Shown here piece by piece: positions 39,701-57,654 of a stretch of 64,000 nucleotides of DNA. The stretch is from the NCBI GenBank assembly GCA_016195275.1, contig JACPZZ010000001.1:3046-67045 (forward strand). The letters are read 5' to 3'. The stretch is from Candidatus Aenigmatarchaeota archaeon (GTDB taxonomy: Archaea > Aenigmatarchaeota > Aenigmatarchaeia > JACPZZ01). The translations under genes and the position numbers were made by a program. Position 1 is the stretch's first letter, and every line of letters begins with the position of its first letter. Below the pieces are notes generated by a model. It worked only from the letters and a program-made list of their open reading frames with translations. It was not told where the DNA came from and ran no database searches.

Positions 39701-41361
39701 AGAATGTTGCAAAAAATCTTGGAATAGATTACAACACCCTAAAAAGTTACAACCGGAAGAACTCGTCAGTCGGCAGGCCGACACTTTCGACACTGAGAAA
39801 ATTGTGCGAGTTGTCAGGTTCCGATTACCCCGGCACGATGAAATCTGTCAAAGAAATATCCTACGCAGACAACGGTTTTCCGAATCCTGTGAAGATAACA
39901 GTGCCGGACGTATGCGAAGACCTGCTTTATGTACTGGGGCTGCTAAATTCCGATGGTTATATTAGCAAACGAGAAATCGTGTTTACAAATATCGATCCCA
40001 CGCTGCACGAGGCGTTTGCTCAAAAAACTGAAAAGTTATTCGGTATTAAAGTAAAAAGCTATAGACCGTTCACATCGTCGTTCTCAAATAAAACCGTGTA
40101 TAATGTGTTGCGGGTCCTTGAGGATCATCTTCCGGAGTTGGACGACAGTCTTATAGTTTCTTGGCTTAAAGGCGTTGCCGACGGGGATGGGTGGGTGGCC
40201 TGTAGAAAAGGAAAAATCAGATCTATAGGCATTGCCACCGCAAAAAGAAATGAGGCGGAATTTGTGCAAACAATGCTTTTGAGGTTGGGTATACAATCGA
40301 AAATTGAAAGGCAGCTTCCTAGCAACACCGTAGGAAAGACAGGGGACAGGATCATAAAAACATTGAAGCCGAAGGATAACATAGTCATATACGATTTCTG
40401 GAACGTTGCAAAGTTCGCCTCTTTAGTTGGTTTCAGACAGCAAAAAATGGCGAGAAGGCTCGCTGAATCCATTGTTAACACGATAGACTGCAAGCAACAG
40501 CATGATGTATTGGATGTTGGCGTATTACTCAAACGGCTGAGGCAAGAAAATGGCTTATTCCAACATTCCTTGTGCTTTTCGGATCAGACGATAAGGCAGG
40601 CGGAAAAATCTAACCGGATGCTAACGCGCAACAACTTACAGTCGTTGCTGACCTCGAAGCAGCTTAAGGGTGATGCCTACGGAGCCTTAAAGCTGCTGGC
40701 ATTCTCGGATATTCTGTGGGACAGGATAATCGGTATAACAGAGGTCCCACACGAAGAATATGTTTATGATCTTACTATGGAATCGGATAATTTTGTAGCC
40801 GACAATATCGTGATGCATAACTGCGGCATCGCTTATGGTGGCGAGCTGCCGGCGGAGTCTGTTGCGACATTGTACAGGTTCGCGAACCGTGTTCCGCTAA
40901 TGTACCAGGCCGGCGATTGCGCGCTGGCGAAGGCTGTTAGTGAAATTGAATGGCGCAGATACGGGCTGGAACAGGGTTCCGGTGCGTCATTGCCGACGGG
41001 CCCTGTTGTAATATTCATTCATATCGCGTCTGTTTGGGTGCCTTTTACATCCGAATCGAAAGAGGCGATTGCCTCATACCCGGAAATAATCAAGGAAGTA
41101 AAACTCGCACTCCAGGACGCCGGGCGAAAAATGAGCATTTACGTGAACAAGAAGAGAAGGGCCGGCGAGGCTGCGATGAGGATAAGCCTGTTTGAAAAAT
41201 ACATACCAGAAGTTTCCGACGCATTGGCAAGGTTAAGCGGCGCAGACAAACATAAAATCGCCTCTAAGCTTGAAAATATGCTAAAGAAGGGAAAAATCGT
41301 AATAGAGGATACGGGAGAACAGGAAGAGGACAAAAAAACCGCCAAGGAAGAGGATGAATAA
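36703..41361 (+). CDS. top6B: DNA topoisomerase VI subunit B carrying two inteins (extein about 543 aa)
   Basis: TTG start. GHKL motifs: VREAVDNSLDA, VEDNGPGI, GKLLFGSKFHKLIQ|SRGQQGIGISGAVLYSQ. Transducer: GNPFQIE|CGIAYGG. Confidence 0.92.
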   Translation: MSDKTIEKAEKVKSAQEMSRDQREISVSEFFEKNRHLLGYDNKVKALLTVVREAVDNSLDACETARIVPDIKVSVKPVNDVKDRYVILVEDNGPGIVKQNIGRVFGKLLFGSKFHKLIQSLTGDEPVFVIRNGKTEIIPIGNLVNSYLQPEETEKNVLDHDLLVPAFDRETYKYRFARVSHVIRHKRENEIVKLTLNTGRTLKVTGCHSIFSINPATGGLEETEARNLKIGDYIAIPKKLPSLEISEINLLDYLSYEHIKDNWAYVYGINGGIFEKLIEGAEAVHKKTDKSRKYYRLFTGNKEPVDILDDSMKQYMNKNFLPIQLVLKLGLKDAVKGGFIKTYCRGKETRIPVSLEMTDKLARFLGLFVAEGHSDKRQIALTFGRHEDHLIDEVLNFARIFGLNTTLEHRKNSIRIKLFGNMFVKFVSDVCGVGAHNKKVPEFVFRAGHIMRQHFLDAIYQGDGHKVKGRNNIMLNTVSKRLANEIMYLWSMQGIAACITSRTNKNGLGRFPSTCYVVNVYGNDINKSFVYSCPNTERTARQIEYESVKQISINSNQLVKSKLIESDILMVKIRNIETINEGHDLVYDLSVTKSENFVGGFGGIACHNSRGQQGIGISGAVLYSQLTSGKPSKIVTSTGDGKTHYMDLMIDTFKNEPEILKEEIKEGKSWHGVKVEMEVEGKYVEHQQSISEYLKQTAMSNPYAEIIYDSPNGKIKFERSVKTLPEEPKSIKPHPHGVEIGILRRMLKTTEARTLTGFFTSDFSRVGQSSAKEIIRLAKLGDDVGPKNIDGPQVEKLFQAIQQVQLIKPQLDCLSPLGEKLIEEGLKKQLKPEYVVAITRPPDVYRGNPFQIECCTGDTKIILENGSVVDIKNYIENGMFKKYDKVLSMTKDLKIKPQKVHAVQKFKNVHKILKIETRTGRVLKLTQNNELPTIINGEIIWKAAGELGAGDFVATPRRLAVDGRKPHILELMDEDCVKVHDIEAVRYLMSKCASKFYGIKNVAKNLGIDYNTLKSYNRKNSSVGRPTLSTLRKLCELSGSDYPGTMKSVKEISYADNGFPNPVKITVPDVCEDLLYVLGLLNSDGYISKREIVFTNIDPTLHEAFAQKTEKLFGIKVKSYRPFTSSFSNKTVYNVLRVLEDHLPELDDSLIVSWLKGVADGDGWVACRKGKIRSIGIATAKRNEAEFVQTMLLRLGIQSKIERQLPSNTVGKTGDRIIKTLKPKDNIVIYDFWNVAKFASLVGFRQQKMARRLAESIVNTIDCKQQHDVLDVGVLLKRLRQENGLFQHSLCFSDQTIRQAEKSNRMLTRNNLQSLLTSKQLKGDAYGALKLLAFSDILWDRIIGITEVPHEEYVYDLTMESDNFVADNIVMHNCGIAYGGELPAESVATLYRFANRVPLMYQAGDCALAKAVSEIEWRRYGLEQGSGASLPTGPVVIFIHIASVWVPFTSESKEAIASYPEIIKEVKLALQDAGRKMSIYVNKKRRAGEAAMRISLFEKYIPEVSDALARLSGADKHKIASKLENMLKKGKIVIEDTGEQEEDKKTAKEEDE
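37060..38526 (+). mobile_element. Top6B intein 1 (489 aa, LAGLIDADG domain), inserted in the ATP-lid motif
   Basis: Starts SLTGDEPVFV and ends GIACHN followed by SRGQQGIG. Blocks: LARFLGLFVAEGHS and RQHFLDAIYQGDGHK. Confidence 0.85.
39262..40821 (+). mobile_element. Top6B intein 2 (520 aa, LAGLIDADG domain)
   Basis: Starts CCTGDTKIIL and ends NIVMHN followed by CGIAYGG. Blocks: LLYVLGLLNSDGYI and IVSWLKGVADGDGWV. Confidence 0.85.
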
Positions 41362-41363
41362 AA

Positions 41364-42443
41364 ATGGCAGGCGAAGCGGTTAAAAAACTCGATAACCTGG
41401 GGAAGAAATTAGTCAAGGACATAGAAGAGGAGAAAAACCCCTCAATGACAATACCTTTACGGGCGCTGTCCAATGTTGTTTTCGACCGCCAAGACAGAAC
41501 CCTGAGAATAGGCGACAAGACTTTTGTAAGGTCCTTTTTCAATGTTGCGCACGCGAGGAAATTCTTACAGACCGTGGAAGTAGGGGCGATAAGCAAAGAC
41601 CTGTTAAACAACAACAAGCACGCCTCGCTGAGAGACGTGTTCTACATGGCTAAACGGACAATCCCGAACACAAAGATAAACGTTGTCGATGAACAACAGG
41701 AATCTGATAATGCGGTTGAAGATTTGGAAATGATAACCGGCTCGTGGCGCGAGCAGCTGCACATCAATGCGAACAAGTTGGGCGCTGTCGCAGGAAACGT
41801 GGTCGTCGAAGATGCCGGGGACACGATTGACTGGTCTAAATTAGGGTCCGGCGGCTGGTCGATACCTTCGAACATAGAAGAGCTGAAATTCAAGAAAGTT
41901 GATGCGAAATATGTCATATACATGGAAAAAGCGGCTGTGTGGGAACGATTAAACGAGGACAAGGTTTGGAAAAAATTAAACTGCATAATAATATCGTCGC
42001 AGGGGCAGGCGACCCGGGGGATAAGAAGAATGCTGCAAATACTCTCAACGCAATACAAATTGCCGATATATGTGCTTACAGACTTTGATCCCTGGGGAAT
42101 CTACATATATTCCGTGTTAAAATTCGGTTCCATTAACCTTGCCCATATTTCAGACCGGCTGTCGATTCCTAATGCAAAATTCCTTGGAATAACTGCTGAC
42201 GACATAGAAAAATACGACCTGAAAAAGCATTTCATCAATTTCAAGGACGTTGATTTTTCCAGGTTAGATCAGATAGGCTCGTATGACTGGTTTAAGAACA
42301 ACAAGGACTGGCAAAGGCAATTCAAGATGATGAAAGACTGGAAAGCGAAAGCTGAAATACAGGCATTGTCGGCGCGCGGCATTTCTTTCATTTCGGACAA
42401 ATACCTGCCTGACAAGATAAAAAACGAGGACTGGCTGGACTAA
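41364..42443 (+). CDS. top6A: DNA topoisomerase VI subunit A (Spo11 family)
   Basis: It sits directly after top6B. LRDVFYMAK holds the catalytic Tyr region. The Toprim segment is YVLTDFDPWGIYIYSVLKFGS. Confidence 0.92.
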   Translation: MAGEAVKKLDNLGKKLVKDIEEEKNPSMTIPLRALSNVVFDRQDRTLRIGDKTFVRSFFNVAHARKFLQTVEVGAISKDLLNNNKHASLRDVFYMAKRTIPNTKINVVDEQQESDNAVEDLEMITGSWREQLHINANKLGAVAGNVVVEDAGDTIDWSKLGSGGWSIPSNIEELKFKKVDAKYVIYMEKAAVWERLNEDKVWKKLNCIIISSQGQATRGIRRMLQILSTQYKLPIYVLTDFDPWGIYIYSVLKFGSINLAHISDRLSIPNAKFLGITADDIEKYDLKKHFINFKDVDFSRLDQIGSYDWFKNNKDWQRQFKMMKDWKAKAEIQALSARGISFISDKYLPDKIKNEDWLD

Positions 42444-43687: not shown

Positions 43688-44509
43688 TTATGGACTGGAT
43701 AACCGAGCAGCCATGTTATAACTATTTATTGGGTGTAAGAAACGGCGACTATAAATCTGCTGGCCTTTGATTCCAAGTTTTTCAATAACATCTTTTACAG
43801 TGTGTTCACCAAATCTTTGACTTTTATTTTTTGATACTGGTTTTTCGGCCTTCGTTTTCCCCGATTTGCCAGAATATATCTCCCATAATTCTTTATTCTT
43901 TTTGATCAAACTTTGTGCTTTCTCCGTTAAAGCTACGCCAAAATTTTCCACAGGTCGTACCAATTCTAGGCTTCTGCAGAGATAGTGATCTAATATCTGC
44001 GTTGGATCTCCAATCACAGTCTTCATAACTTTATCTGATTCGCCGAGCAAGATATCACACGTTCTTAAAAACTTGCTCATAAAAGCTGGCTGGTCTGGCG
44101 TGGAGGAGACGATTACAGCCGACAGAACTATTCCTAGCGAGTTTTCCAAGCCTTCCAGGCCAAAACTTCGGGAAAGCTCATCCCAATAGTTGTCAAGGAG
44201 AATTGATGCCATGTCCTGATTTGTTATTGTTGTCAGGTTATTTCTTAAAAGCTTGTCCTCTAACTTCTCTGTGAATATGGCCAACCTTTCATCCTTTATT
44301 TCGATTATCCCTGCGTTCTTCAAATGTTCCATGTCTCTGTTAAAGCTGGGGAACATTGCAGAAACTATGTCAACCGGAGCAGAACCTCCTGCCTTGAACA
44401 TGAACCACAGTACATCTGATAACTCATTGATTTTTGGCGATAATTTTAGAAATTCTTTTGAGAAGGTTTGCCTTGTCAGTTCGACTATATCTTCTTTTAC
44501 CACTCTCAT
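43688..44509 (-). CDS. unknown-function protein, paralog family member 3 (winged-helix-like N-terminus, basic tail)
   Basis: 273 aa. Shares ELTRQTFSKEFLKLSPKI...TPDQPAFMSKFLRT with 44534..45253. Confidence 0.6.
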   Translation of the reverse strand: MRVVKEDIVELTRQTFSKEFLKLSPKINELSDVLWFMFKAGGSAPVDIVSAMFPSFNRDMEHLKNAGIIEIKDERLAIFTEKLEDKLLRNNLTTITNQDMASILLDNYWDELSRSFGLEGLENSLGIVLSAVIVSSTPDQPAFMSKFLRTCDILLGESDKVMKTVIGDPTQILDHYLCRSLELVRPVENFGVALTEKAQSLIKKNKELWEIYSGKSGKTKAEKPVSKNKSQRFGEHTVKDVIEKLGIKGQQIYSRRFLHPINSYNMAARLSSP

Positions 44510-44533
44510 TACTTTTAATTCATCCTAAAGAAT

Positions 44534-45253
44534 TTATACGAATTCCATCTCTTCTTTTACTCTTATAGGCTCCTCGGTCTCAACGGGTTTTTCTTCCTTT
44601 TTCGCCACCGGCTTTATTTTGATATCTTTCTTTTTGCTGCTGTAGAGCTCTGATAGTTCATTGTCCATCTGTATTAACTGCTTAGCTTTTTCAGAAAGAG
44701 CCACTCCGACATTTCCAAAAGGCTCTACAAGGTCGAGAGGGAAAATATAGTTGTCCAAAACCAACCTCGGGTTGCCGAGCACGCCTTCCAGTTTCAACTC
44801 TCCAATAATGTTGGCAGAGGTTCGCAGTACTTTGCTCATAAAAGCTGGCTGGTCTGGCGTGGAGTTCGCGATTATTCCCGACAGTGTTGCCGATAGCGAA
44901 TTTACAAATTCCTCCATCCCAAAACTGTCCAGCAATTTGTCTAAATAGTTGTCTAATAGTATCGATGTAACATCAGATTCTGTTATATCCCTCAAATCTT
45001 TACTCAACAGTTTTTCCTCAAACTTTTCCTTGAGAACTACCAGGTCGCTATTCATTTCGATCAAGCCTGCTTTGATCATCCCCTGTGAATCTTCATTGAA
45101 ATTTGGAAATCTTACAGATATGGCATTCGTATGGGTGAAACCGCCTGTCTTAAAAACAAACCATAGGATTTCTGAAATTTCTCGTATTTTTGGCATCAAT
45201 CGAAGGAACTCTTTTGAGAAGGTTTGCCTTGTCAGTTCGACTATCCTTTCCAT
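44534..45253 (-). CDS. unknown-function protein, paralog family member 2 (Lys/Glu-rich tail)
   Basis: 239 aa. MERIVELTRQTFSKEFLRLMPKI...TPDQPAFMSKVLRT...KKKDIKIKPVAKKEEKPVETEEP. Confidence 0.6.
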   Translation of the reverse strand: MERIVELTRQTFSKEFLRLMPKIREISEILWFVFKTGGFTHTNAISVRFPNFNEDSQGMIKAGLIEMNSDLVVLKEKFEEKLLSKDLRDITESDVTSILLDNYLDKLLDSFGMEEFVNSLSATLSGIIANSTPDQPAFMSKVLRTSANIIGELKLEGVLGNPRLVLDNYIFPLDLVEPFGNVGVALSEKAKQLIQMDNELSELYSSKKKDIKIKPVAKKEEKPVETEEPIRVKEEMEFV

Positions 45254-45606
45254 GGTATTATTTTACCCATAAAAGTTAAATACCCATGTTTTGTAAGAAC
45301 CCTATAGGGTAGTATCACCAAATTACATAATTTGAGGGGTGGTGATACCAAGTGATAGTTAGTAACTCTGGGTTATTAAGGTTTGCTTCAAAGTGCTTTA
45401 GGCTGGTGCCAAAGGTGATGCCAGAATATTCTTCCAAAAAGGAATATAACCAAAGATAGAAGAGCGAGGCTGCCACTTCATCTGTAAAGAGGAAATATGG
45501 TGATAATGTAAGTTCAGGGGGATGAGGCTCACGGCTTTTGTTTACATGTGGACAGAGATTCAAGGGGTTTTATTGTAGGATTTATACAGAGCAAATACCT
45601 ATCGAT

Positions 45607-46374
45607 TCAAACCCACGGAAAGTACTGCCTTAACTTTCTCAACCTCCCTTCCTCTTCTTTACTGTAATATTTTATCACAGGTTTTTCTGTCGGTTTTTCA
45701 ACAGGCTTTTCTTCTTTCTCAACCGCTTCTGGCTTATATTCTTCTTGATAAGCCTTAAAAACTTCTTCGTCGTTGCTAATCCTTTTCACAGCTTTTTCGG
45801 AGAGGTTTATCATAATTCCATCTTCTATTTTTATAAGGCCCAGAAATCTATTCAGATAATAATTAAGAATTTCCTTGCATTCAATAGGCGGGGCATTCCA
45901 TGTCCTGGTGGACTCCCTGTATATACGCCCAACAAACGCAGGCTTTTCGGGAGTTGCGTATCTGATGATTAAGGATAGCACGGTTGTTATGAAATCCGTT
46001 AATTTGTTTCTGCAAAATCCTATTAGCTTTTGTCCGGCATACCCGAATGTCAGCTCAGCAAACATATCTTTTGTCAACGGCTCTTTGTCTATGATAAAAT
46101 TTGCAAACTGTTTATCCAAAGATAAAAAAACGTTTGTGTCTTTATTTTTGCCAAGTGTCCCGAGCGCATGCCACACAATCAGCTTCATTTCAGAAAGAAA
46201 CATGATTTTATTTTCAATGGCCTCATCGACTTCAAGCTGGAATGTTACAAATTTCATAGGCACGACAGCTCCAATCTTGTGCAACGCCCACAGTATATCT
46301 ATATAACCCAATGCTCTGGGCGAAAGCTTGAGAAGATCTTCGGCAAATACAGCTTCAACCCTTCTAAGTTCCAT
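45607..46374 (-). CDS. unknown-function protein, divergent paralog family member 1 (Glu/Lys/Pro-rich tail)
   Basis: 255 aa. LLKLSPRALGYIDILWAL...ATPEKPAFVGRIYRES...EEYKPEAVEKEEKPVEKPTEKP. It starts 34 nt downstream of the MinD/ParA gene. Confidence 0.6.
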   Translation of the reverse strand: MELRRVEAVFAEDLLKLSPRALGYIDILWALHKIGAVVPMKFVTFQLEVDEAIENKIMFLSEMKLIVWHALGTLGKNKDTNVFLSLDKQFANFIIDKEPLTKDMFAELTFGYAGQKLIGFCRNKLTDFITTVLSLIIRYATPEKPAFVGRIYRESTRTWNAPPIECKEILNYYLNRFLGLIKIEDGIMINLSEKAVKRISNDEEVFKAYQEEYKPEAVEKEEKPVEKPTEKPVIKYYSKEEEGRLRKLRQYFPWV

Positions 46375-46408
46375 ATATGGATATTAATTTCGAAGATTAA
46401 AATGATTA

Positions 46409-47266
46409 TTACGCGCCTCTCCCCAATTTTTTAAAGTATCCTAAAAACCTTTTTATCAAGCCCGGCTTTTCTTTGGGTTCTATGGCAGGCTCTCTGAACG
46501 ACTCACCAAATCTCCCAACGCCTTTATCTTTTTCCGGTTTTTCTCCAACCAGACTTGCGGCGAGTTGTATATATGCTTGGCTTGCCCTGGAACCAGGATT
46601 TGATAATATTACCGGGGTTTTTGAGTTCACGCTCTGTAGAATACTTTCATCCTCCGGAATAGACCCAATTATAGGTAAGGCTGTTAATCTTTCTACTTCA
46701 CTTTCTGATAGCTCATAATCCTTTCCTTTTACTCTGTTCATTAAAACACCAATGGGTTCGATATCGGCAACACCGTCCTGGGTCAGCTTAATGGAGAGGT
46801 TCACGATTTTTGCAACGTCAACCGCCGAAGGTATGAAAGGATTCGCAATAAAAAGCACTTTATCACATGCCTTCAAAGCCATCAAAGCCTCTCTATCAAT
46901 ACCAGGCGCAGAGTCAAGCAATACGATGTCAAACATTTCCGACAAATTCTTTATAGTTTTTGTAAAAAGTTCATGGTCTATTCCTTGTAGATCCTGTATA
47001 TTCAAAGAAGCTGGTATTATCCGAAGACCGGAAGGATGGATGTACAATGCTCCAGCCAACGATGCCCTGTTCTGCAAAACTGAATTTAGTGTTATTGGTG
47101 TAATGTAAATTCCAAGATATAAACCAATATGGGCCGTGGTAAGATTACAGTCCACCAGGGCAACTTTTTTATTAAAGTGCTCTGTTAGGGCTAATCCAAG
47201 GTTTATAGCAGTCGTCGTTTTCCCAGCCCCGCCTTTTCCGCTAACTATACCGATAATCCTACCCAA
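46409..47266 (-). CDS. MinD/ParA-family deviant Walker A ATPase with a C-terminal amphipathic helix
   Basis: GIVSGKGGAGKTTTAINLG (deviant Walker A) and IVLLDSAPG (Walker B). The C-terminus PGLIKRFLGYFKKLGRG resembles a MinD membrane-targeting sequence. Confidence 0.85.
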   Translation of the reverse strand: MGRIIGIVSGKGGAGKTTTAINLGLALTEHFNKKVALVDCNLTTAHIGLYLGIYITPITLNSVLQNRASLAGALYIHPSGLRIIPASLNIQDLQGIDHELFTKTIKNLSEMFDIVLLDSAPGIDREALMALKACDKVLFIANPFIPSAVDVAKIVNLSIKLTQDGVADIEPIGVLMNRVKGKDYELSESEVERLTALPIIGSIPEDESILQSVNSKTPVILSNPGSRASQAYIQLAASLVGEKPEKDKGVGRFGESFREPAIEPKEKPGLIKRFLGYFKKLGRGA

Positions 47267-47320
47267 AGCATCACACCACTGATTTTAGATTGATCCTGAG
47301 CTTTAAATGGTTTTTGTATT

Positions 47321-47644
47321 TTAATTTTCCTTGTTGGATGGTTTTTGAGGCGGCGCGATAGAAACTAGTGGCTGAGAATCTGCTTTTAGCGCATCGTTGT
47401 TTTGATTTTTCCCCTTTCTTTCAATTTCTTCTGAATAATGCTTTCGCACGTTTTCATCCCAAGCTTCCATTAAGCCATAACCAAGCATTGTTGCCATGCC
47501 TGCAATTGCGGCCCTTAAATTAATGCCGATCAATGGGATGCCTGAAAGGGTGATCACAACATCTGCGTTAATAACAACCCCTGTATCCAGAATAGCATTC
47601 AGAAGGTCCACCAGTTTGTAATTCAAGTCTCTTTTCGGTTCCAT
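47321..47644 (-). CDS. gvpM: gas vesicle protein, GvpA-family minor component (GvpJ/GvpM-like)
   Basis: LVDLLNAILDTGVVINADVVITLSGIPLIGINLRAAIAGMATM is the GvpA/J/M core. I cannot separate J from M by eye. Confidence 0.75.
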   Translation of the reverse strand: MEPKRDLNYKLVDLLNAILDTGVVINADVVITLSGIPLIGINLRAAIAGMATMLGYGLMEAWDENVRKHYSEEIERKGKNQNNDALKADSQPLVSIAPPQKPSNKEN

Positions 47645-47648
47645 TCAA

Positions 47649-48461
47649 TCAACCCACAAAATGGAAGGGGGGCCAGGGCCCAGAAAATCGAACAGATAGT
47701 CCATGTATTTTATTGGTCTCTTCCAAGAACTTGCCTAAGGCTTCGATTTTGCTATTATGCACGAGACAGGATAGATTTAGAATCATCTCTTTGTCTTTCC
47801 ATTTTCCATCTTCTATATTAATTGTTTTTTCGGCTTTCATTTCTTCCGCAGAGTCTTTAACCTGATCACAAATTTTTTTAGAATATTCTTTATAATATTC
47901 CTCCACCTTCCTCCTTGTTTCATTGATAACTATCAGCTCAAGTTTTTTCTGAAGAACGTAAGCAATGCCCTTGGGCTTCGTTTCAATGTCCATTTTTAAC
48001 CTTTGAATTTCCTCGTTGGTGCTTTCAATTTCTTGGCTAGTGGAACCAGTATCCATGAAAATTTGAATATCGTATTCTGCTTTTCCGTCTAATCTTTCTA
48101 AACTGTTTTTAAGCTTGTGATACTCCGCGCTTAACCATTTCCTTACGTCATCCTCGGTTCCTTTGATTATAGTGTCAAAGGCAAACGGAACGACAGCGCC
48201 GAATTTTTTTGCTGCTGCGTCAATCGTATACAGATGCGAAAAAAGCCACGATTTCACCTCTTCCTCTTTGTTTGATTTGTATGGTTTAGCCAAGCATTTG
48301 TGGACTATGACGCCTATGTCCTTATATAGTATGGCATACACCCTATTATTCCCTATTCCTATGTTCCCAAAACCGGTTTCTGCGCCGCAATTGGTTACAC
48401 AATAGAGATATACGCCTTCGCCAACACTCTCTTCACATTTAACATCATTCACTTTTTTCAC
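47649..48461 (-). CDS. gvpL: gas vesicle protein GvpL/GvpF family
   Basis: GVYLYCVTN...FGNIGIGNNRVYAILYKDIGVIVH...FSGPWPPFHFV. Confidence 0.8.
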   Translation of the reverse strand: MKKVNDVKCEESVGEGVYLYCVTNCGAETGFGNIGIGNNRVYAILYKDIGVIVHKCLAKPYKSNKEEEVKSWLFSHLYTIDAAAKKFGAVVPFAFDTIIKGTEDDVRKWLSAEYHKLKNSLERLDGKAEYDIQIFMDTGSTSQEIESTNEEIQRLKMDIETKPKGIAYVLQKKLELIVINETRRKVEEYYKEYSKKICDQVKDSAEEMKAEKTINIEDGKWKDKEMILNLSCLVHNSKIEALGKFLEETNKIHGLSVRFSGPWPPFHFVG

Positions 48462-48762
48462 CCTGTGGTTCCAAATACACCAACTTCAGAAACATGTTGC
48501 TCAAGGTTTCTCTTAATTTTTCCCTGTTTTTAAAATGATTTTCCCCTTCAACCTTCATCTCTATGCCATTGTCAGAATTTGTAACTACAATCACCGGGAA
48601 TCTTTTGATGGAATGCTTCTTTATGTACCTTACAAAATCCATTTCCCTGGCCCCTATCTTGTCCACATGAATTTTGCTTTCTTCGTGGAGTTCATCGAGA
48701 ATGCCCTCTGCCAATTGCGTATCTTTATCTTTTATGCTGTATATCAACCTTGTAATTATCAT
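48445..48762 (-). CDS. hypothetical protein within the gvp operon
   Basis: 105-aa ORF whose stop overlaps the gvpL start. No known Gvp family recognised. Confidence 0.5.
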   Translation of the reverse strand: MIITRLIYSIKDKDTQLAEGILDELHEESKIHVDKIGAREMDFVRYIKKHSIKRFPVIVVTNSDNGIEMKVEGENHFKNREKLRETLSNMFLKLVYLEPQGEKSE

Positions 48763-48766
48763 GCCG

Positions 48767-49297
48767 TTACCTTTTCTTCATTTTTACAGACAAAAAACCT
48801 TTCTCTTCACCTTTCCTGTATTCTATTTCTACATCTTTGACATAGCATTTTAATGGAACTTCTTTACGATATTTTCCATCTTTTGTTTCTATGATAAGCT
48901 TTTTACCTATAGGGTAGACTTTTAAATCGCTTTCTTCTACAGGCGGGGTTTCCTCCCACACAACTATAGTCTTAATGTCCTCTTCTTTCTTAGGAATTTC
49001 TCCTGTTACCAGCGTTCTTACAGAATAAGAATATTCTATACGCGGTTTGCCTGACCATCCTTTCTCCAGCCTAGACTTTATCTCTTTATCGGTTTCTTCA
49101 ACCCTTTTCTGGAGTTCTGGGGACGCTTTGATTAACTTGCTTACAAATTTTCCTAACCCGGGGATAAAGTTGCCCACGAGTTCCTCTACCGAAGAGATTT
49201 CAGGCTTCTTTTCCTTCTCTTTTTCAAGTTTTTCTGTTTTCTTTTCAAGTTCCTCTATCCTTTCCTTGTCTTTTTTCTTTTTTTTCATTCGCTTCAC
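48767..49297 (-). CDS. GvpH-like / Hsp20-like protein with a Lys/Glu-rich N-terminus
   Basis: 176 aa. The C-terminal ...LIIETKDGKYRKEVPLKCYVKDVEIEYRKGEEKGFLSVKMKK resembles the alpha-crystallin beta7-beta9 pattern. Size and position fit GvpH. Confidence 0.45.
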   Translation of the reverse strand: MKRMKKKKKDKERIEELEKKTEKLEKEKEKKPEISSVEELVGNFIPGLGKFVSKLIKASPELQKRVEETDKEIKSRLEKGWSGKPRIEYSYSVRTLVTGEIPKKEEDIKTIVVWEETPPVEESDLKVYPIGKKLIIETKDGKYRKEVPLKCYVKDVEIEYRKGEEKGFLSVKMKKR

Positions 49298-49300
49298 TCT

Positions 49301-49615
49301 TCATTCGTATGCGGCTACTTTCCCCTCGTTTTGAATGTCCATCTCTCCTATAGCGCTGTTCACTATTTTGTCAAGATCGCCGTTAATGGAATTAACTGTG
49401 TCCTCGAGGTCATTTTCTTTTTTGATATGCCTGATGGTATCATCTAAATCTATCAGGGCATTGCCTAATTTTTCAACTTCTTCTCCGGTCAACCTGCCCA
49501 ACTCCATCCTTCTTATTGCCTGATGCTCTAATGCGTCTTTGATTATCTCAACAAGTGTAATTACTAAACCAAGCAATCCCTTTTTGAGGTTATCCTCATC
49601 GATTTTGACAGTCAT
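49301..49615 (-). CDS. gvpK: gas vesicle protein GvpK
   Basis: LKKGLLGLVITLVEIIKDALEHQAIRRMELGRLTGEEVEKLGNAL. I placed the start at the ATG that forms an ATGA overlap with the upstream stop. The track start at 49651 is the alternative. Confidence 0.8.
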   Translation of the reverse strand: MTVKIDEDNLKKGLLGLVITLVEIIKDALEHQAIRRMELGRLTGEEVEKLGNALIDLDDTIRHIKKENDLEDTVNSINGDLDKIVNSAIGEMDIQNEGKVAAYE

Positions 49616-49947
49616 GCCATCACAGCAACCCTTTTCTTGCATTTTGGGCAACCATGTCCTTCAAAAAACCTTTTTCCTATCAATTCTCCACACGTGGGGC
49701 AATACGTCAAGTCTCCTTGTTCTCTCAGCGCTTTCCATCCTGGAGCATCATAATTAACTCCTGAAGGAAATTCCAGGCCGTACTTTGCTGCTGTTGCGAG
49801 CGAAGCCAGGGTTGCCCTTATTTTTATTCCCAGCAGTTCGGTGCCAGCAACTGATACAACAATGTCCGCGTTTATGACTATGCCTTTGTCTAAAAGTTTA
49901 ATTAACGCTTCAGGAAGCGTCATGACTTCTCTATTATGTGTTATCAT
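49612..49947 (-). CDS. gvpJ: GvpJ-like (GvpA-family) protein fused to a C-terminal CxxC...CxxC zinc ribbon
   Basis: LPEALIKLLDKGIVINADIVVSVAGTELLGIKIRATLASLATAAKYG is the GvpA/J core. The C-terminus is ...YCPTCGELIGKRFFEGHGCPKCKKR. Confidence 0.75.
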   Translation of the reverse strand: MITHNREVMTLPEALIKLLDKGIVINADIVVSVAGTELLGIKIRATLASLATAAKYGLEFPSGVNYDAPGWKALREQGDLTYCPTCGELIGKRFFEGHGCPKCKKRVAVMA

Positions 49948-50324
49948 AGCGCTTTTCCCTCATTTCTATTTGAGGTGGCGGATTTTAACCTCATTCCGTA
50001 CAATCTTTTTTTTGGTTGTATATCAGAATATCTGGGCCTTGCAGGGATTGTTGAAAATTTGCATCCCAACCTGTCTCCTCTTTTTTCAGGTTGTGATGAA
50101 AACGCTGAAGGGTTTAAGTTTTTTGGCCTGCCCGCTTTCTTCATAACCATTAATCGTTTATTGAGATTCACTTTTCTAGCGTATCGAATACTGTTCTGGA
50201 TTAGACTTGACCTCGCCCTGTCCCTCCACATCTGCATTTTCTTTTTCGTTTTTGCTATTATATTTTTTCTGCGCACGCCTGTCCTCATAATTTTGCCAAC
50301 GGAGAAATTTCCTATAGGTCCCAT
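49944..50324 (-). CDS. highly basic hypothetical protein in the gvp operon (possible GvpI analog)
   Basis: 126 aa, very Lys/Arg-rich. It fills the gap between gvpG and gvpJ exactly, with overlapping start and stop codons on both sides. Confidence 0.4.
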   Translation of the reverse strand: MGPIGNFSVGKIMRTGVRRKNIIAKTKKKMQMWRDRARSSLIQNSIRYARKVNLNKRLMVMKKAGRPKNLNPSAFSSQPEKRGDRLGCKFSTIPARPRYSDIQPKKRLYGMRLKSATSNRNEGKAL

Positions 50325-50614
50325 TATGCAACGCCTCCTAATATGTCCATCCTCTGGTCTAATTTCATCTCCCTTGCTTTTACACCCAGTTCCAGCTTCT
50401 CTCTCAAATCAGCATCAATTATTTTGTAATCTTCTTCAGTCCTTTCTCCAATTTCAAAAAGCAATCTGTTTTCTTTTATCATATCTTTGATTTTCGGAGG
50501 ATCATACGCTTCCTTATAGGCAAAATCCCGTATGAGTTTGAATAAAGCAATAGTGTCGAAGGGCAGTATGGAAATGCCAAGAAGCCTTAAAACAATATCA
50601 TCTATGATGAACAC
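50324..50614 (-). CDS. gvpG: gas vesicle protein GvpG
   Basis: MFIIDDIVLRLLGISILPFDTIALFKLIRDFAYKEAYDP...FEIGERTEEDYKIIDADLREKL matches the GvpG pattern. Confidence 0.7.
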   Translation of the reverse strand: MFIIDDIVLRLLGISILPFDTIALFKLIRDFAYKEAYDPPKIKDMIKENRLLFEIGERTEEDYKIIDADLREKLELGVKAREMKLDQRMDILGGVA

Positions 50615-51277
50615 CTACTCGCCTCCTCCTATTTTTATTTTTACAAAATTGTATGGTGGCCAAGGTCCGGTATACTGAATCTTTGGAGCGAGCATTTTTT
50701 CCACCTCATCCACTTCTTTGGAAAATTCCTTAATTTTATTTTTTTCAACCAAGAATGACGCATTCAGGAGCAGCCTCTCGCTAAATAGTTTGGCGTTAAC
50801 AGACTCTACGGCTTTTTTCTTAAGCGACTCAAAAATATACGAAGCGAACTGGATTTTCTTTTCTCCAAGCAATTCCATAAGTTCTTTGCCCAAGACGATC
50901 TTAATTCCGAGCTCAACTTTGTTGTCTAATAATGCCAAAGATTTTTTAATCGCATCATAGCTTTTCTCTAGCACCGAAAGCAGGACTTCTTTATCTTTAA
51001 ATGCCATGCCAAACGCCATCGGTATCACCGTATGTTCTTTCATAACCAGAGTGGCAACTTCATTGTGCGCTTTTATGTTTTCTTCGGTTGATTGATAATC
51101 TGTCAGGGGCGTGTCGCTTACAACAGCGGATATTCCTTTATAAGGAATGGTATAGACTTCGCTGAAATTTCCAATTCCCTTGTTGCCAAAACTTGCTGGT
51201 TTCTCGGTGTTGGCAATTATGCAGTAAACATATTTTCTTTCTTCTATTACGGGATCTTTTCCTGTTTTCTTACTCAT
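50615..51277 (-). CDS. gvpF: gas vesicle protein GvpF
   Basis: KYVYCIIAN...FGNKGIGNFSEVYTIPYKGISAVVSD...YTGPWPPYNFV. Confidence 0.85.
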   Translation of the reverse strand: MSKKTGKDPVIEERKYVYCIIANTEKPASFGNKGIGNFSEVYTIPYKGISAVVSDTPLTDYQSTEENIKAHNEVATLVMKEHTVIPMAFGMAFKDKEVLLSVLEKSYDAIKKSLALLDNKVELGIKIVLGKELMELLGEKKIQFASYIFESLKKKAVESVNAKLFSERLLLNASFLVEKNKIKEFSKEVDEVEKMLAPKIQYTGPWPPYNFVKIKIGGGE

Positions 51278-52121
51278 AGTTAATCATCTGTTTTTTATTT
51301 CTATAATCTGACAACAAGAATTTGGTCAGAATGCCGCTGATCTTGATATGTTCCTCAAGGCTATCTTTTACTTCATGCAAAGAAATATCAACAAGTTTGT
51401 AGATCTTCTTTTTTACAACATACTCATATTGTATCATGCCCTTCTTTTCCAAAGTATGAAGGAGTGGGTATATCGTGCCTGGGCTGAGAAATACGTTGAA
51501 GTTTTTATGCACCGCCTTTATCATATCCGTACCACACATGGGCTTATTCATTAGCAAAGCAAAGATTATCATTTTCAAATCGTTTTTCACATACCGCTCT
51601 ATGGAATCATCTTTGATAACCTTGTCAATAGACTCGGACGATAAAATTGAAATATCGCCTGACGTGAGTATTAGCTTGTCATGATGTGCCACTAAATCCT
51701 TGATAATGGCTGGGTCTATCTTTGTAACATCATATACGCATGATATTGAAGAATTCTTTTGGAATCCCTCTGTCAGGCACTTTTCGTATTTGGCGTGGTC
51801 TTCTTTAGCGATTGAGGCAGCGTCAAAAATTATCTTCAGCTTTCTTTTGCCAGGTTTTAGCGTGCTTAATTTTTCCGGTCTTAATATGGATATATTTGCT
51901 CCCAGTCCATTAAATTTTTTCATTCCGCTGTCAGGGTCGTCATTGGTTACATAGATCACTTTTTCATTTTTTTCTGTTGTAGCCAAAAGTGATGCTTGAA
52001 GCGCACCTTTGTCAATATCCGGGGTATAAAAAACTAAGCCGTGCTTAAAATTGCCCATATCAGATAAAATTGATTTTACATCCAATTTTCCCGAGTTCAT
52101 ACTATTTACCCCTCTCATCAA
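51270..52121 (-). CDS. putative gvp regulator: N-terminal KaiC/RecA-like domain without an obvious P-loop, plus a C-terminal PadR-type winged helix
   Basis: The C-terminus IIFALLMNKPMCGTDMIKAVHKNFNVFLSPGTIYPLLHTLEKKGMIQYEY is a PadR signature. Paralog of 54895..55896. Confidence 0.6.
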   Translation of the reverse strand: MMRGVNSMNSGKLDVKSILSDMGNFKHGLVFYTPDIDKGALQASLLATTEKNEKVIYVTNDDPDSGMKKFNGLGANISILRPEKLSTLKPGKRKLKIIFDAASIAKEDHAKYEKCLTEGFQKNSSISCVYDVTKIDPAIIKDLVAHHDKLILTSGDISILSSESIDKVIKDDSIERYVKNDLKMIIFALLMNKPMCGTDMIKAVHKNFNVFLSPGTIYPLLHTLEKKGMIQYEYVVKKKIYKLVDISLHEVKDSLEEHIKISGILTKFLLSDYRNKKQMINYE

Positions 52122-52404
52122 TCAAGTCTGACCTGCGTCTTACCATTATTTGCCTGTAGTTCAAAAGTTTACCGCCAGGGCTGAACTCCAATTCATACCT
52201 ACCGAGAAGATCCTGAGTGTCCGGAACAGCCTTTCTTTCCAATGTTTCTATCACAGCTTTCCATCCCTGGTCATCTTTGACAACACTCACAATTTGTTCT
52301 ACCGGCTTGTTTACCAAATCTTTCAATGCAGAAAGCCCCAATTTACCTATCTCCACCGGACTCTTTTTCTCCTGTATTATCTCACGGGATGTAGATTTTT
52401 TCAT
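52102..52404 (-). CDS. gvpO: gas vesicle protein GvpO
   Basis: VEQIVSVVKDDQGWKAVIETLERKAVPDTQDLLGRYELEFSPGGKLLNYRQIMVRRRSD matches the GvpO pattern. Confidence 0.75.
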   Translation of the reverse strand: MKKSTSREIIQEKKSPVEIGKLGLSALKDLVNKPVEQIVSVVKDDQGWKAVIETLERKAVPDTQDLLGRYELEFSPGGKLLNYRQIMVRRRSDLIDERGK

Positions 52405-52747
52405 TTACGATCTCCACCGGCTTGCCGATCCAAGTTTTTATCCCCGCTACTATATCATAACCTTCTAATTTTTCTGCTAATTTGTAGTATTTAACAAATC
52501 TGTAAAGCCTTTGGAGGGTCGACTTGCCACGACCTAGAGGTATGACATCAACCGTGTGATCAGGTTTAATACAAGTATAAAAAGTTTCCTTTACCGATTC
52601 CCCGTCCTTTTTTGCTGTCACAACAATAATTTCTGTGTCGTGAAAACCAACCGGTGCCGGCTTCCTAGGAAGGCTGCTTATCCTTACAATTTTTACGTTG
52701 CTTATTACTCCCCGGTCTTTTTTCAAGTTTTTCTCTTTTTGAACCAT
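52382..52747 (-). CDS. unknown protein in the gvp operon, short paralog
   Basis: 121 aa. Shares a domain of about 110 aa with the C-terminus of 52749..53459 (VKIV.I....RKP.....D..II......G...K.TFY..I.P...........K.......F..YYKLA..LE.YD...). Confidence 0.6.
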   Translation of the reverse strand: MVQKEKNLKKDRGVISNVKIVRISSLPRKPAPVGFHDTEIIVVTAKKDGESVKETFYTCIKPDHTVDVIPLGRGKSTLQRLYRFVKYYKLAEKLEGYDIVAGIKTWIGKPVEIVNEKIYIP

Positions 52748-52748
52748 A

Positions 52749-53459
52749 TCAAATTACCTCCGGGATTACAATTTTACCAGAGCTGTCTATTTTAACCGTT
52801 TTTCCCTTCCACCCCTTGGATTCCTCAATAACATCGTATTCTTCCAAGTTATCCGCCAGCTTGTAATACCGAAGGAAATTGATGAATTTTTGCTGGGTAG
52901 GAGTCTTCGCACGGCCATATTTTATACCGAGCATCCCGCCCGGCTCAATATAAGCGTAAAATGTTTTTTTCTCTTTTTTCCCTTCGGGAGTTTTTATTGT
53001 TATGATTATCGCGTCAGATTCTGAACTAAAAGCCGCGGGTTTTTTCCTCCACATATCCCTGATCTTTACAATTTTCACATCCTCTATCACGGGTTTTCTT
53101 AATCCGGCTTTGAATTTTTCCTTCTTCGGCTCTTGTAATTTCGGTTTTTCTTTCGGCTTGGACGGCTTTCTCACAACCTCCTCCTTTTCAACTCTGGTTT
53201 CTGGTTTTTCCGGCTCTTTAATCAGTCCTTCCGGAATTTCTATTATGGGTTGCGTGGGAATTTCTCTATGTTTTTCTAGTTCTAAAACCACAGTTTCTTT
53301 AATCTCTGCAGCAGCTTTAGGTTCCTCTATCCAAACCTCTTCTTTTCCCTCTACGTCAACTTTGCTAATCTCCTCTTTTTCTTTGATTTGATCCCTGAGG
53401 AGCTCAATCTCTTCCTCTTTTAATCTTTGCTTAGATGTTTCAGATGCCTGCCAAGTCAC
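52749..53459 (-). CDS. unknown protein in the gvp operon, long paralog with a Glu/Lys-rich N-terminal region
   Basis: 236 aa. About 120 aa of low-complexity E/K/P-rich sequence precede the shared C-terminal domain. Confidence 0.6.
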   Translation of the reverse strand: MTWQASETSKQRLKEEEIELLRDQIKEKEEISKVDVEGKEEVWIEEPKAAAEIKETVVLELEKHREIPTQPIIEIPEGLIKEPEKPETRVEKEEVVRKPSKPKEKPKLQEPKKEKFKAGLRKPVIEDVKIVKIRDMWRKKPAAFSSESDAIIITIKTPEGKKEKKTFYAYIEPGGMLGIKYGRAKTPTQQKFINFLRYYKLADNLEEYDVIEESKGWKGKTVKIDSSGKIVIPEVI

Positions 53460-54526
53460 TAAATCACACTTTTTATAATTTCTAATTTTTTTGAAAGATC
53501 AGCCGTCCCCTTTGTCTTGGTAACAATTATATCGGTAAGGATTTGCTCTAAATTCTCTGAACCGGATTCTTTAACCGCTTGTCCAACCATGATGGCGGCC
53601 CTTGTGCCCGGCCTTTCCGCTTCTGGTAATTTTGCCCTTAATGTCCTGACTGCTTTCACAATTTCCTTGGCTAATTTTGTTGATACTTCAGAGCGGACCT
53701 CAACGATTTTAACCTCGGTATCAAAGTCGTAGAAATCCATATACACCCCTATCATTCTATCCAATAAAGCGTCTTGAGGTCTGTGCACGCCGGCATATTC
53801 AACAGGATTGCTTGTGAATATTGCCCTAAAATCAGGGTGGACTTTTACGTATCTTTCTTTCCCGAAATGGGTGGGAAGTTCCAATATGCCTTCTTGAAAA
53901 ACAGAAAGCAAAACATTGTTTGCTACCGGCAAACTCCTGGAAAATTCATTGTAAACTAAAGTGAAGCCAAACTTGCAAGCTATCGTAAGAGGGTTGTCAA
54001 CCCAATCAGCGCTCAGTGTGTCGTGGGATTTGAAAACATTATGGATATATTTGTCCCTCAAACTTTCAACTTCTACTTGAGAATAACCTCCGATCAGGTC
54101 TGTAGTTGTCATCTGTCCGTCCCCATTTATCCATACTGTGGACCTGCCCAGCTCTTTTGCCACTTGCATTGCTATCGTTGTTTTTCCACACCCCGTGGGA
54201 CCAATTATGTGGACAGGATGCCCGATCTTGAGCCATATTTTTATCCTTTTTTTTAATTGCTTAATTTCGGGTGTTTCCACAAAGTTTTTAATTTGAGGAA
54301 CAAGGTAAGCAGGATTTTCTTTAATAGGTAGACCTTCGACCCCTATTTCATCCGTGGGGGCCAGCGGTCTGATGTAAGATGAAGTTTCCTTAGCCCTTAA
54401 TTGATTAAGACGATGAGGCCTCAGGCCCATGATCTTTTTAAATTGCCTTTCTTTCCTTTTCGTTTGTATATCTTTGTGAACTTGCTCACCAATAACTTTT
54501 CGAGGATGATCAGACGGTTTTTCCAT
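53459..54526 (-). CDS. gvpN: gas vesicle protein GvpN (AAA+ ATPase, MoxR/CbbQ-like)
   Basis: HPVHIIGPTGCGKTTIAMQVAKELG (Walker A), LVYNEFSRS (Walker B), 355 aa. Confidence 0.9.
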   Translation of the reverse strand: MEKPSDHPRKVIGEQVHKDIQTKRKERQFKKIMGLRPHRLNQLRAKETSSYIRPLAPTDEIGVEGLPIKENPAYLVPQIKNFVETPEIKQLKKRIKIWLKIGHPVHIIGPTGCGKTTIAMQVAKELGRSTVWINGDGQMTTTDLIGGYSQVEVESLRDKYIHNVFKSHDTLSADWVDNPLTIACKFGFTLVYNEFSRSLPVANNVLLSVFQEGILELPTHFGKERYVKVHPDFRAIFTSNPVEYAGVHRPQDALLDRMIGVYMDFYDFDTEVKIVEVRSEVSTKLAKEIVKAVRTLRAKLPEAERPGTRAAIMVGQAVKESGSENLEQILTDIIVTKTKGTADLSKKLEIIKSVI

Positions 54527-54649
54527 TACATTACCTTTTTTATGATCGTTATTAGGATAGATAAGGTTTTTGTTTTGATTATTGTATCGAATTTCGATTT
54601 TAAAAATGAAAAATAAGCTTAAATATAGCCAAATTTAATTAATTAAATA

Positions 54650-54700
54650 GATTAATTAGATTAAGCTGGTTAACTAAGTTGAATTAACTGGATTAATTAG
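54650..54700. promoter_or_regulatory. four copies of a G(A/G)TTAA(T/C)TAAG-like motif in the divergent gvp intergenic region
   Basis: GATTAATTAG (54650..54659), GGTTAACTAAG (54668..54678), GAATTAACTG (54681..54690), GATTAATTAG (54691..54700). Confidence 0.4.
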
Positions 54701-54709
54701 CGTGATGAG

Positions 54710-54892
54710 ATGTTTAAATTAGAACGGAAGACGTCTATAGAAAAGCAAATGGCATGCGACATTTGTGAAAAAGCCACAGGCAAAGGCAGCCCGATGAATG
54801 TTTTCAGGTCGCCTCTTGCCTATACACATATTATCAACGTCTGTGACAACTGTATCCCCAATTTTCCCAAATCATTTATTAAGAAGGGTTAA
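54710..54892 (+). CDS. small zinc-ribbon protein, hypothetical
   Basis: 60 aa with CDICEK...CDNC, directly upstream of the PadR-like regulator. Confidence 0.35.
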   Translation: MFKLERKTSIEKQMACDICEKATGKGSPMNVFRSPLAYTHIINVCDNCIPNFPKSFIKKG

Positions 54893-54894
54893 AC

Positions 54895-55896: not shown

Positions 55897-56076
55897 AAAA
55901 GTTTTTTTCTCGTGTCGAAACTGGATACAGATCACGATATTCTTTTTAGATGATCTTTTGATATGTAATTTAAAAGATAATGCTTAAAACAGCCCATTTC
56001 TATATTCTGATTAAAGTGTTAGAGACGAGAAAAGGCGAGTCTCTGATAATATATAAAATTGATAGGAGGGCTATAA

Positions 56077-56304
56077 GTGGCAACACCAACTGGGCCAAAC
56101 GTTTCAAGTTTGGCTGAAGTATTGGACAGAATTTTGGATAAGGGAGTAGTAGTAGATGCATGGGTAAGAGTGAATCTAGTCGGCATAGAGATACTATCCA
56201 TAGAGGCTAGAATTGTGGTAGCGTCGGTGGACACATTCTTGCATTATGCAGAAGAAATGACCAAGATAGAACAGGCGGCATTGGCAGTTCCTGTTCCTGC
56301 CTAA
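56077..56304 (+). CDS. gvpA: major gas vesicle structural protein GvpA
   Basis: GTG start 8 nt after [59 protein letters not shown] is the canonical GvpA sequence. Confidence 0.95.
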
Positions 56305-56370
56305 ATTTGAAATTTGGGATGAGCTGAAAAGCGATGAGTCCATTTAATAATTATTAGGGAGGAGTATGAA

Positions 56371-56658: not shown

Positions 56659-56704
56659 CCCCATTTAATTTTTTAATTGTGGTTTAAACTAACGGAGGAA
56701 GAAA

Positions 56705-57617: not shown

Positions 57618-57654
57618 TGACGCTTATTTTACATCGAAAACCAAAATATTTATT

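Follow-up and report, generated by a model that had tools for sequence, protein, structure and literature searches.

A MinD-type ATPase gene attached to the gas-vesicle cluster of an Aenigmatarchaeota archaeon: a candidate factor for gas-vesicle positioning or tethering

The DNA considered here (hereafter the window: the whole stretch of 64,000 nucleotides (nt) analysed, from contig JACPZZ010000001.1 of Candidatus Aenigmatarchaeota archaeon) carries a complete gas-vesicle (gvp) cluster with gvpA, N, O, F, G, J, K, L and M, an Hsp20-like gene and two MEDS-PadR regulators. Directly past gvpM, the last of the classical genes, lie a gene for a MinD/ParA-type ATPase and then three paralogous genes (the triplet). 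We find that the minD-like gene codes for a MinD paralog that has been taken into the gas-vesicle island as an accessory component, and that its closest relatives form a clade which sits beside gvp genes in most of its lineages. An initial annotation of this DNA had put the gene forward as a candidate gas-vesicle positioning ATPase, encoded co-directionally exactly 54 nt past the last gvp gene. The spacing holds from the sequence, the gene call is genuine, and the genomic context best supports a part in the positioning or tethering of gas vesicles, a reading that we put forward tentatively.

46409 to 47266, minus strand: the minD-like gene, 285 amino acids (aa), TTG start; member of the gvp-linked MinD clade.
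47267 to 47320, minus strand: gvpM-minD spacer, 54 nt, with TTTAAA at 47302-47307 and GGTGTGA at 47271-47277.
47321 to 47644, minus strand: gvpM/J-type gene, 107 aa (PF00741, E=7e-14), the final classical gvp gene of the operon.

Searching 5.8 billion proteins gave 97 homologs at E<=1e-20. A neighbour-joining tree groups the six nearest of these (52-70% identity) in a single clade. The loci that encode members of this clade, with their identity to the window protein, are arranged as follows.

L001 (GCA_053536295.1), 70% identity: gvpL-gvpM-minD, followed by the triplet in opposite orientation and by ribosomal protein genes.
L018, 66% identity: gvpL-gvpM-minD.
L017, 70% identity: orf176-gvpK-gvpL-gvpM, a small Zn-ribbon open reading frame (ORF), a two-domain ArsA gene, then minD.
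L008, 58% identity: gvpN and minD divergent; downstream of minD come an orf236-like gene and one for a CDC48-type AAA protein.
L010, 59% identity: gvpN and minD divergent, followed by a CDC48-type AAA gene.
L016, 67% identity: triplet convergent with minD.
L009, 52% identity: too short to judge the context.
L011, 70% identity: too short to judge the context.

All close relatives on a contig long enough to judge adjoin gvp genes (L001, L008, L010, L017 and L018), and adjacency is seen in five of about six clade lineages, lineages being set by pairwise identity; the initial concern that orthologs might never be linked to gvp genes can be laid aside. In raw numbers, 6 of 9 clade contigs are gvp-linked against none of about 21 other MinD loci, but the clade contigs are phylogenetically related, so that independent linkage events are far fewer than this count. 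The sister and other MinD loci (L002, L012-L014 and L019-L034) have no gvp genes nearby, the 16 metagenomic ones among them giving zero Gvp matches. A scan with the MinD protein of a genome-contig collection that evidently lacks the source genome yielded distant ParA-like loci of bacteria and Nanoarchaeota and nothing else; it has no bearing on co-occurrence. What flanks the gene varies whilst minD stays with gvp: topoisomerase VI in the window, ribosomal proteins in L001 and CDC48 in L008 and L010. P0007, one of the MinDs without gvp linkage, also adjoins CDC48.

Considering clusters irrespective of MinD gives the other half of the picture. L035, chosen through its GvpN homolog (74% identity, on a 135-kb contig of another metagenome-assembled genome, MAG, GCA_053536675.1), holds a complete collinear cluster in which the gvpN-to-gvpM segment and the gvpA arm are orthologous to those of the window at 59-86% identity, with the gvpN-to-gvpL operon in the same order (59-74% identity); here gvpM is followed by a tRNA synthetase gene, with neither a clade MinD nor the triplet after it. 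L015 contains the C-terminal portion of an extended GvpM, and immediately after it comes the triplet (75-79% identity to the window's), no minD intervening. The zone downstream of gvpM is found in five states (minD with triplet, minD alone, ArsA with minD, triplet alone, and nothing): it is a variable accessory zone, and the absence of minD from L035 and L015 marks the gene as an accessory, variable component rather than a core gvp gene. L035 does carry another MinD paralog (4183-4932, minus strand; 249 aa), 39% identical to the window MinD and outside the clade, which ends the gvpA arm beside PheRS genes; either it has replaced the clade MinD without being its ortholog, which would hint at independent recruitment, or it is there by chance.

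Base composition places minD with the gas-vesicle genes. Triplet, minD and all gvp genes share one low-GC island:

43688 to 60400, no strand: low-GC island, GC 0.389 against 0.454 and 0.462 in the flanks.

GC at third codon positions (GC3) is 0.374 for minD and 0.41-0.46 for the triplet, within the island range, against 0.48-0.57 in the flanking genes. The island also contains a weak transposase remnant (58779-59342), and its low GC, together with the different chromosomal positions of the cluster in related MAGs, suggests that the gvp cluster is horizontally mobile.

Whether the gene might be isolated from the operon by its own promoter and terminator was a further point of the initial annotation, and on this the spacer speaks both ways. 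It holds no T-run and no terminator-like hairpin by a bacterial-type scan of limited value for archaea (the sigma-70 and intrinsic-terminator counts, from a scan unsuited to archaea, are near those of shuffled sequence), which would permit transcription of the long gvp operon to read through. On the other hand, a TATA-like TTTAAA lies 36-41 nt before the minD start codon, and a similar ATTTAAA box at a similar distance, together with GTGAG, precedes minD in L001 and L018. Such a box ahead of minD in three loci makes an own or internal promoter possible, but AT-rich spacers often hold TATA-like strings, and TTTAAA is therefore weak evidence in either direction. A Shine-Dalgarno-like GGTGTGA stands 7 nt ahead of the TTG start.

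A second signal, recurrent and more telling, lies at the head of the operon:

54586 to 54598, no strand: 13-bp palindrome ATCGAATTTCGAT, candidate operator, about 60 nt upstream of gvpN; sole exact copy in the window.

Exact copies of ATCGAATTTCGAT recur in the gvpM-to-minD spacer of L018 (860-872) and in the gvpM-to-paralog-1 spacer of L015 (431-443), and near-copies in the gvpN/minD divergent spacer of L010 (762 and 810) and between triplet genes in L001 (3794) and L016 (427). By comparison, 207 kb of control loci contain one 1-mismatch match and otherwise 2-mismatch matches only, and upstream of gvpN in L035 there are only direct repeats of the half-site TTCGATAT. A 14-mer with three central A/T bases was also considered as the palindrome and rejected, as its matches were at chance level; the 13-mer is the recurrent element. 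Its recurrence suggests that gvpN, minD and the triplet may share a regulator, and it is possibly an operator for the MEDS-PadR regulators of the cluster.

As to the protein itself, its identity as a MinD/ParA-type ATPase is well founded: Pfam (CbiA, ParA and AAA_31), alignment to 1HYQ and fold matches all agree. The N-terminus MGRIIGIVSGKGGAGKTT aligns residue for residue with the first residues of Pyrococcus and Archaeoglobus MinD, and the nearest solved sequences are A. fulgidus MinD-1 (1HYQ, E=1e-39) and P. furiosus MinD. Against NCBIfam TIGR01969 (minD_arch) it scores 197.8 bits, narrowly under the cut-off of 201.75, which is probably why the exact protein bears the database name 'AAA family ATPase'; the near miss is consistent with a divergent MinD paralog, as judged from the sequence. 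It also matches a PHROG ParA-like partition family, and ArsA_ATPase (PF02374) at 20.2 bits, under the cut-off of 24.3; in Pfam and NCBIfam it matches only ParA/MinD-type families and no known Gvp family. An AlphaFold2 model based on 56 homologs has a mean predicted local distance difference test (pLDDT) of 91, with about 97 for core residues 1-241. Its top Foldseek matches are the archaeal MinDs 1ION, 1G3Q and 1HYQ (target template-modelling score 0.90-0.92), with 3Q9L also in the top set; bacterial MinD and FlhG/FleN (the latter at ranks 10-13) follow, then Soj/ParA/McdA, and SegA stands 50th. The parts of the protein that matter for the argument are these:

47213 to 47242, minus strand: deviant Walker A SGKGGAGKTT, residues 9-18, with the signature Lys11 and Lys16.
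47144 to 47152, minus strand: switch I, D39-C40-N41, with Asn at the position equivalent to E. coli MinD Asp40.
46901 to 46921, minus strand: Walker B/switch II LLDSAPG, residues 116-122; D118, after the hydrophobic strand IVLL, invariant in the homolog alignment.
46460 to 46543, minus strand: flexible, charged, Pro-rich linker, residues 242-269; AlphaFold2 pLDDT 48-70, no secondary structure.
46421 to 46459, minus strand: C-terminal amphipathic helix LIKRFLGYFKKLG, residues 270-282, helical in the AlphaFold2 model and resembling a membrane-targeting sequence.

The deviant Walker A (KGGAGKTT) had been recognised at the outset, and K11, G12, G13, G15 and K16 prove invariant across the 56 homologs. 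Switch I departs from the D-x-D pattern, reading D-C-N here against D-A-D in 1HYQ and D-G-D in 1G3Q. Asp40 of E. coli MinD supports hydrolysis; mutating it traps the ATP dimer, and D-to-A trap structures are among the Foldseek matches of the model. The Asn suggests slow hydrolysis, a property better suited to a long-lived tether than to a fast oscillator. We considered whether it might be a clade-specific mark of a static tether and rejected this, since 71 of the 97 homologs share it. A large group of DPANN-type MinD homologs naturally has Asn in place of the second switch-I Asp, and their sequences suggest a family of slow or non-hydrolysing MinDs. Pfam and NCBIfam scans of the gvp-cluster ORFs found no MinC or MinE family match; archaeal MinDs are not generally known to have such partners.

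The flexible charged linker that had been described ahead of the terminal helix is borne out by both the AlphaFold2 model and the composition. It spans about 28 residues in the window MinD, against about 105 aa, and acidic, in the relatives of L001 and L011; this linker, or a long acidic/basic extension, inserted between the MinD core and the terminal helix, is what is specific to the clade. As for the helix, which had been likened to the MinD membrane-targeting helix, the stretch RFLGYFKKLGR has the maximum helical hydrophobic moment of the protein, 0.79, a value that about 5% of shuffles of the 18-residue tail reach. A terminal amphipathic helix is thus predicted as claimed, but it is a trait of the family: relatives without gvp linkage carry one too, and we discarded the idea of an amphipathic tail as a gvp-specific feature.

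The three paralogs reported downstream of minD are likewise confirmed:

45607 to 46374, minus strand: paralog 1, 255 aa, starting 34 nt past the minD stop; lineage-specific, winged-helix-like.
44534 to 45253, minus strand: paralog 2, 239 aa, 49% identical to paralog 3.
43688 to 44509, minus strand: paralog 3, 273 aa, AlphaFold2 pLDDT 73.6.

They are 24-49% identical to one another, and their family counts 7 members in the 5.8 billion proteins. In the model of paralog 3, a winged-helix-like unit at the N-terminus precedes a helical middle and a second beta-wing, and the tail, rich in Lys, Glu and Pro, is disordered. The triplet has no Pfam, NCBIfam or PHROG match; Foldseek gives nothing below E=0.09, with weak matches to MarR, PadR, ArsR, ScpB, MukE and STK19-type winged-helix proteins, and a PDB profile search gave nothing meaningful. 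The triplet adjoins minD in the window, L001 and L016, was not seen beside minD on the short contigs of L008, L010 and L018, and occurs without minD in L015, where integrase-like fragments adjoin it.

How might such a protein act on gas vesicles? In the mechanism that we propose, minD would be expressed together with the gvp genes, and its signature lysine would mediate ATP-dependent sandwich dimerisation, as in the MinD family. The ATP dimer, with its two amphipathic helices, would bind the cytoplasmic membrane as do E. coli MinD and Haloferax MinD4, and its dimer-interface surface would bind a gas-vesicle-associated partner, with the triplet, GvpM, GvpL and GvpF as candidates; within a gvp cluster, a component of the vesicles or an adaptor would be the most economical choice. 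Few gas vesicles or nucleation sites would thereby be tethered or distributed in a very small cell, and both daughters would inherit them. If so, the clade could be the first ParA/MinD-type ATPase dedicated to gas vesicles, its membrane-bound ATP dimer anchoring or partitioning a very low-copy organelle in nano-sized DPANN cells, possibly via the triplet or PH-like extensions of GvpM; in this full form the proposal is possible, though somewhat doubtful. Alternatively, the amphipathic helix might attach to the shell of the gas vesicle instead of the membrane.

Several points weigh against a positioning or tethering role. The evidence for it is wholly genomic, and the linked loci all come from related Aenigmarchaeota-like lineages, whose arrangements a few inversions or insertions could explain. 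The clusters of L035 and L015 do without the gene, and L009 has no gvp gene in its 3.3 kb (a contig too short to judge). The recurrent TATA-like box leaves room for separate expression, the switch-I Asn is family-wide, and an amphipathic C-terminal helix is also present in most of the more distant, non-gvp homologs. Finally, no partner was recognised by Foldseek or PDB profile search, the triplet having no significant structural or sequence neighbour there.

Could the ATPase instead govern gas-vesicle production? It might be a regulatory switch like FleN/FlhG, acting on a transcription factor (a MEDS-PadR protein or the triplet), or an ArsA/Get3-like handler of hydrophobic Gvp proteins in nucleation, and this we judge unlikely. 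Haloarchaeal gvp clusters couple a P-loop protein, GvpD, with the activator GvpE, a pairing that lends the idea some appeal. The MEDS-PadR regulators of the window are unlike the GvpD/GvpE pair. FlhG/FleN do rank just behind the MinDs among the structural matches, yet the nearest matches are true MinDs. The cluster offers possible targets, with its two MEDS-PadR regulators, three winged-helix-like proteins beside minD and a candidate operator palindrome common to the upstream regions of gvpN, minD and the triplet; against this, the winged-helix assignment of the triplet is weak (no fold match at E<0.09), and minD stands without an adjacent triplet on the short contigs of L008, L010 and L018. 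The handler variant draws on the two-domain ArsA/Get3-like ATPases which, outside the classical gvp set, recur in gvp clusters (Castillo and Saier 2010, PMC2963123) and are the nearest precedent for a link between MinD and gvp genes. These share with the window MinD the fact of being SIMIBI-class P-loop ATPases encoded in gvp clusters, and in L017 a two-domain ArsA (1990-3945; PF02374, E=8e-147) lies between gvpM and minD, which extends the bacterial ArsA-gvp association of 2010 to an Aenigmarchaeota-like archaeal group. The window, however, has no ArsA homolog, and its MinD is a single-domain protein of 285 aa scoring 20.2 bits, against about 650 aa and 489 bits for the ArsA of L017; that ArsA and MinD coexist in that locus argues for distinct roles.

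A more prosaic account would be that an ordinary cell-organisation MinD paralog became a gvp neighbour once, in a common ancestor, and that the synteny was merely inherited. We consider this unlikely as well, although much is compatible with it: every linked locus comes from the same clade of related organisms, and inverting the gvpN-to-gvpM block once turns the window arrangement into that of L008 and L010. In those two loci minD lies by a CDC48-type AAA gene, as does the non-gvp MinD of L002. DPANN genomes also hold several MinD paralogs (L014 has three), the paralog at the border of L035 sits beside housekeeping PheRS genes, and the orthologous cluster of L035 does without minD. What speaks for a closer bond is that the GC3 of minD is that of the island and not of the flanks, and that the flank beside minD and the triplet varies across lineages while the attachment to gvp persists. 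Moreover, the minD of L008 has gvp-cluster-type genes on both sides, the palindrome of the gvpN type lies directly upstream of minD in L018, and the C-terminal extension is specific to the clade.

Least likely, in our estimation, is a ParA/SegA-type DNA segregation cassette (the ATPase plus three winged-helix-like adaptors) of an integrated element carrying the gvp genes: a ParA-type ATPase beside small DNA-binding proteins is the classical partition layout, and the transposase remnant in the low-GC island, the integrase-like fragments by the triplet in L015, the different chromosomal sites of the island across lineages and the PHROG match would all suit it. In fold and sequence, however, MinD comes nearest, ahead of Soj, ParA and McdA, with SegA 50th, and the membrane-targeting-type tail is atypical of DNA-partition ParAs. 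In L001 and L016 triplet and minD converge and hence do not form one operon, and each occurs without the other elsewhere (L015; L008, L010 and L018). Nor were relatives of the MinD clade or the triplet found in IMG/VR viral contigs or in a plasmid collection, where the triplet had no match and the sole MinD match, from Thermococcus, was 30% identical; both sets cover DPANN elements poorly.

To return to positioning or tethering, comparison with known systems helps to define what would be new. ParA/MinD ATPases position plasmids, carboxysomes, chemoreceptor arrays and flagella. With the archaeal MinDs 1HYQ, 1G3Q and 1ION (the latter two from Pyrococcus), the window MinD shares the fold, about 32% identity, the deviant Walker A, Walker B and core length; unlike them, it has an added linker and terminal helix and is encoded inside a gas-vesicle cluster. 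McdA/McdB and ParA/ParB belong to the same ATPase superfamily and fold, and here too the gene lies beside the genes of a large proteinaceous organelle; their matrix, however, is the nucleoid, whereas the window MinD has a MinD-type membrane helix, and no McdB- or ParB-like partner is recognisable in the cluster by Pfam, NCBIfam, Foldseek or PDB profile search. That the triplet, lineage-specific and partly disordered, serves as the adaptor is a guess. In architecture the protein resembles MinD4 of H. volcanii, which positions archaella and chemosensory arrays and has a long, acidic, low-complexity C-terminal extension with a terminal membrane-targeting sequence needed for function (bioRxiv 10.1101/2020.04.03.021790). 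Both are archaeal MinDs built of core, extension and terminal membrane-targeting helix, MinD4 serving cargo positioning and not cell division. The likeness is one of architecture: the extension of MinD4 runs to about 300 aa where that of the window MinD has 28 aa (about 105 aa in L001 and L011), its cargo is a different one, and it is not encoded with its cargo genes. The sole spatial organiser described for gas vesicles is GvpU of Bacillus megaterium, a phase-separating organiser of gas-vesicle clustering (bioRxiv 10.1101/2023.06.01.543273); it is not an ATPase and is unrelated in sequence to the window MinD, and the paper that describes it names no ParA/MinD component. In keeping with the initial view of the link as undescribed, we found no publication on MinD in gvp clusters: full-text searches brought up neither a MinD/ParA-type gene in gvp clusters nor gas vesicles in Aenigmarchaeota, although subscription journals are thinly covered and absence there is not proof.

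The remainder of the gvp cluster has features of its own. It consists of two arms:

47649 to 54526, minus strand: the rest of the long gvp operon, assigned by Pfam, with a weak Hsp20 match for orf176.
54895 to 56658, plus strand: divergent arm, with MEDS-PadR (54895-55896), gvpA (56077-56304) and the coiled-coil orf95 (56371-56658), assigned by Pfam.

Read on the minus strand from 54526 to 47321, the operon runs gvpN, orf236, orf121, gvpO, MEDS-PadR, gvpF, gvpG, gvpJ (with a Zn-ribbon), gvpK, orf176, orf105, gvpL and gvpM; the plus strand carries small conserved ORFs beside its MEDS-PadR gene and gvpA, and the gene order of the divergent arm is identical in L035 and L036. The two MEDS-PadR regulators (51270-52121, minus strand; 54895-55896, plus strand) join a MEDS-like sensory domain to a PadR winged helix and are conserved in L035. 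The GvpJ-type protein (49612-49947, minus strand) ends in a CxxC...CxxC zinc-ribbon-like tail, unusual in GvpJ, and is matched over its full length at 68% identity in L035. Between gvpN and gvpO lie the paralogous orf236 (52749-53459) and orf121 (52382-52747), which have no Pfam, NCBIfam or PHROG match and are kept in related clusters (L035 11068-12303; L008 2020-2934); in L008, inspection of the sequence by eye suggests that the orf236-type domain is fused to an Hsp20-like C-terminus. The GvpM of relatives is extended at its C-terminus by 120-200 aa (L001 276-953; L018 155-850; L035 17098-18033, where the extension is duplicated; L015 2-412). This extension weakly matches the Vps36 PH-like GLUE domain (23.3 bits against a cut-off of 24.1), and the GvpM of the window, at 107 aa, is without it. 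On a wider scale, GvpN homologs of 54-70% identity are named from Nanoarchaeota, Altiarchaeales, Hadesarchaea, Bathyarchaeia, Thermoplasmatota, Methanoperedens and Hydrothermarchaeota, and from these sequences gas-vesicle clusters appear far commoner in uncultured archaea than the searched literature reflects.

Outside the island, the window holds a topoisomerase VI B subunit gene (36703-41361, plus strand) of 1552 aa with two inteins (two Intein_splicing stretches and two LAGLIDADG homing-endonuclease domains), followed next by the A subunit gene (41364-42443). Among the MinD loci away from gvp genes, those of the sister clade (L012-L014) lie by very large surface-type proteins and further MinD paralogs. 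At L014 (5394-15433) and L012, three MinD paralogs alternate with surface-type proteins of 800-1100 aa (CarboxypepD_reg, Big and CARDB hints) amid ribosomal protein genes, in a conserved DPANN locus. In another DPANN MinD subgroup (L027, L029, L030, L031 and L033), a conserved small ORF of about 80-100 aa stands upstream of MinD in every case; it starts MGLFG.YVYKDK...KWWLHSK and may encode a partner protein of the subgroup.

For the placement and inheritance of gas vesicles, a MinD paralog that travels with gvp genes offers a concrete and testable candidate. The triplet, the orf236/orf121 family, the extended GvpM and the candidate operator might in turn improve, or spatially control, heterologous gas-vesicle expression for acoustic reporters. 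For the organisms themselves, complete gas-vesicle clusters are now documented in Aenigmarchaeota, ultrasmall and presumably host-dependent archaea. Tethering would be particularly useful if very small DPANN cells hold only few vesicles, and, if this role of the clade is true, gas vesicles would join the list of ParA/MinD cargos.

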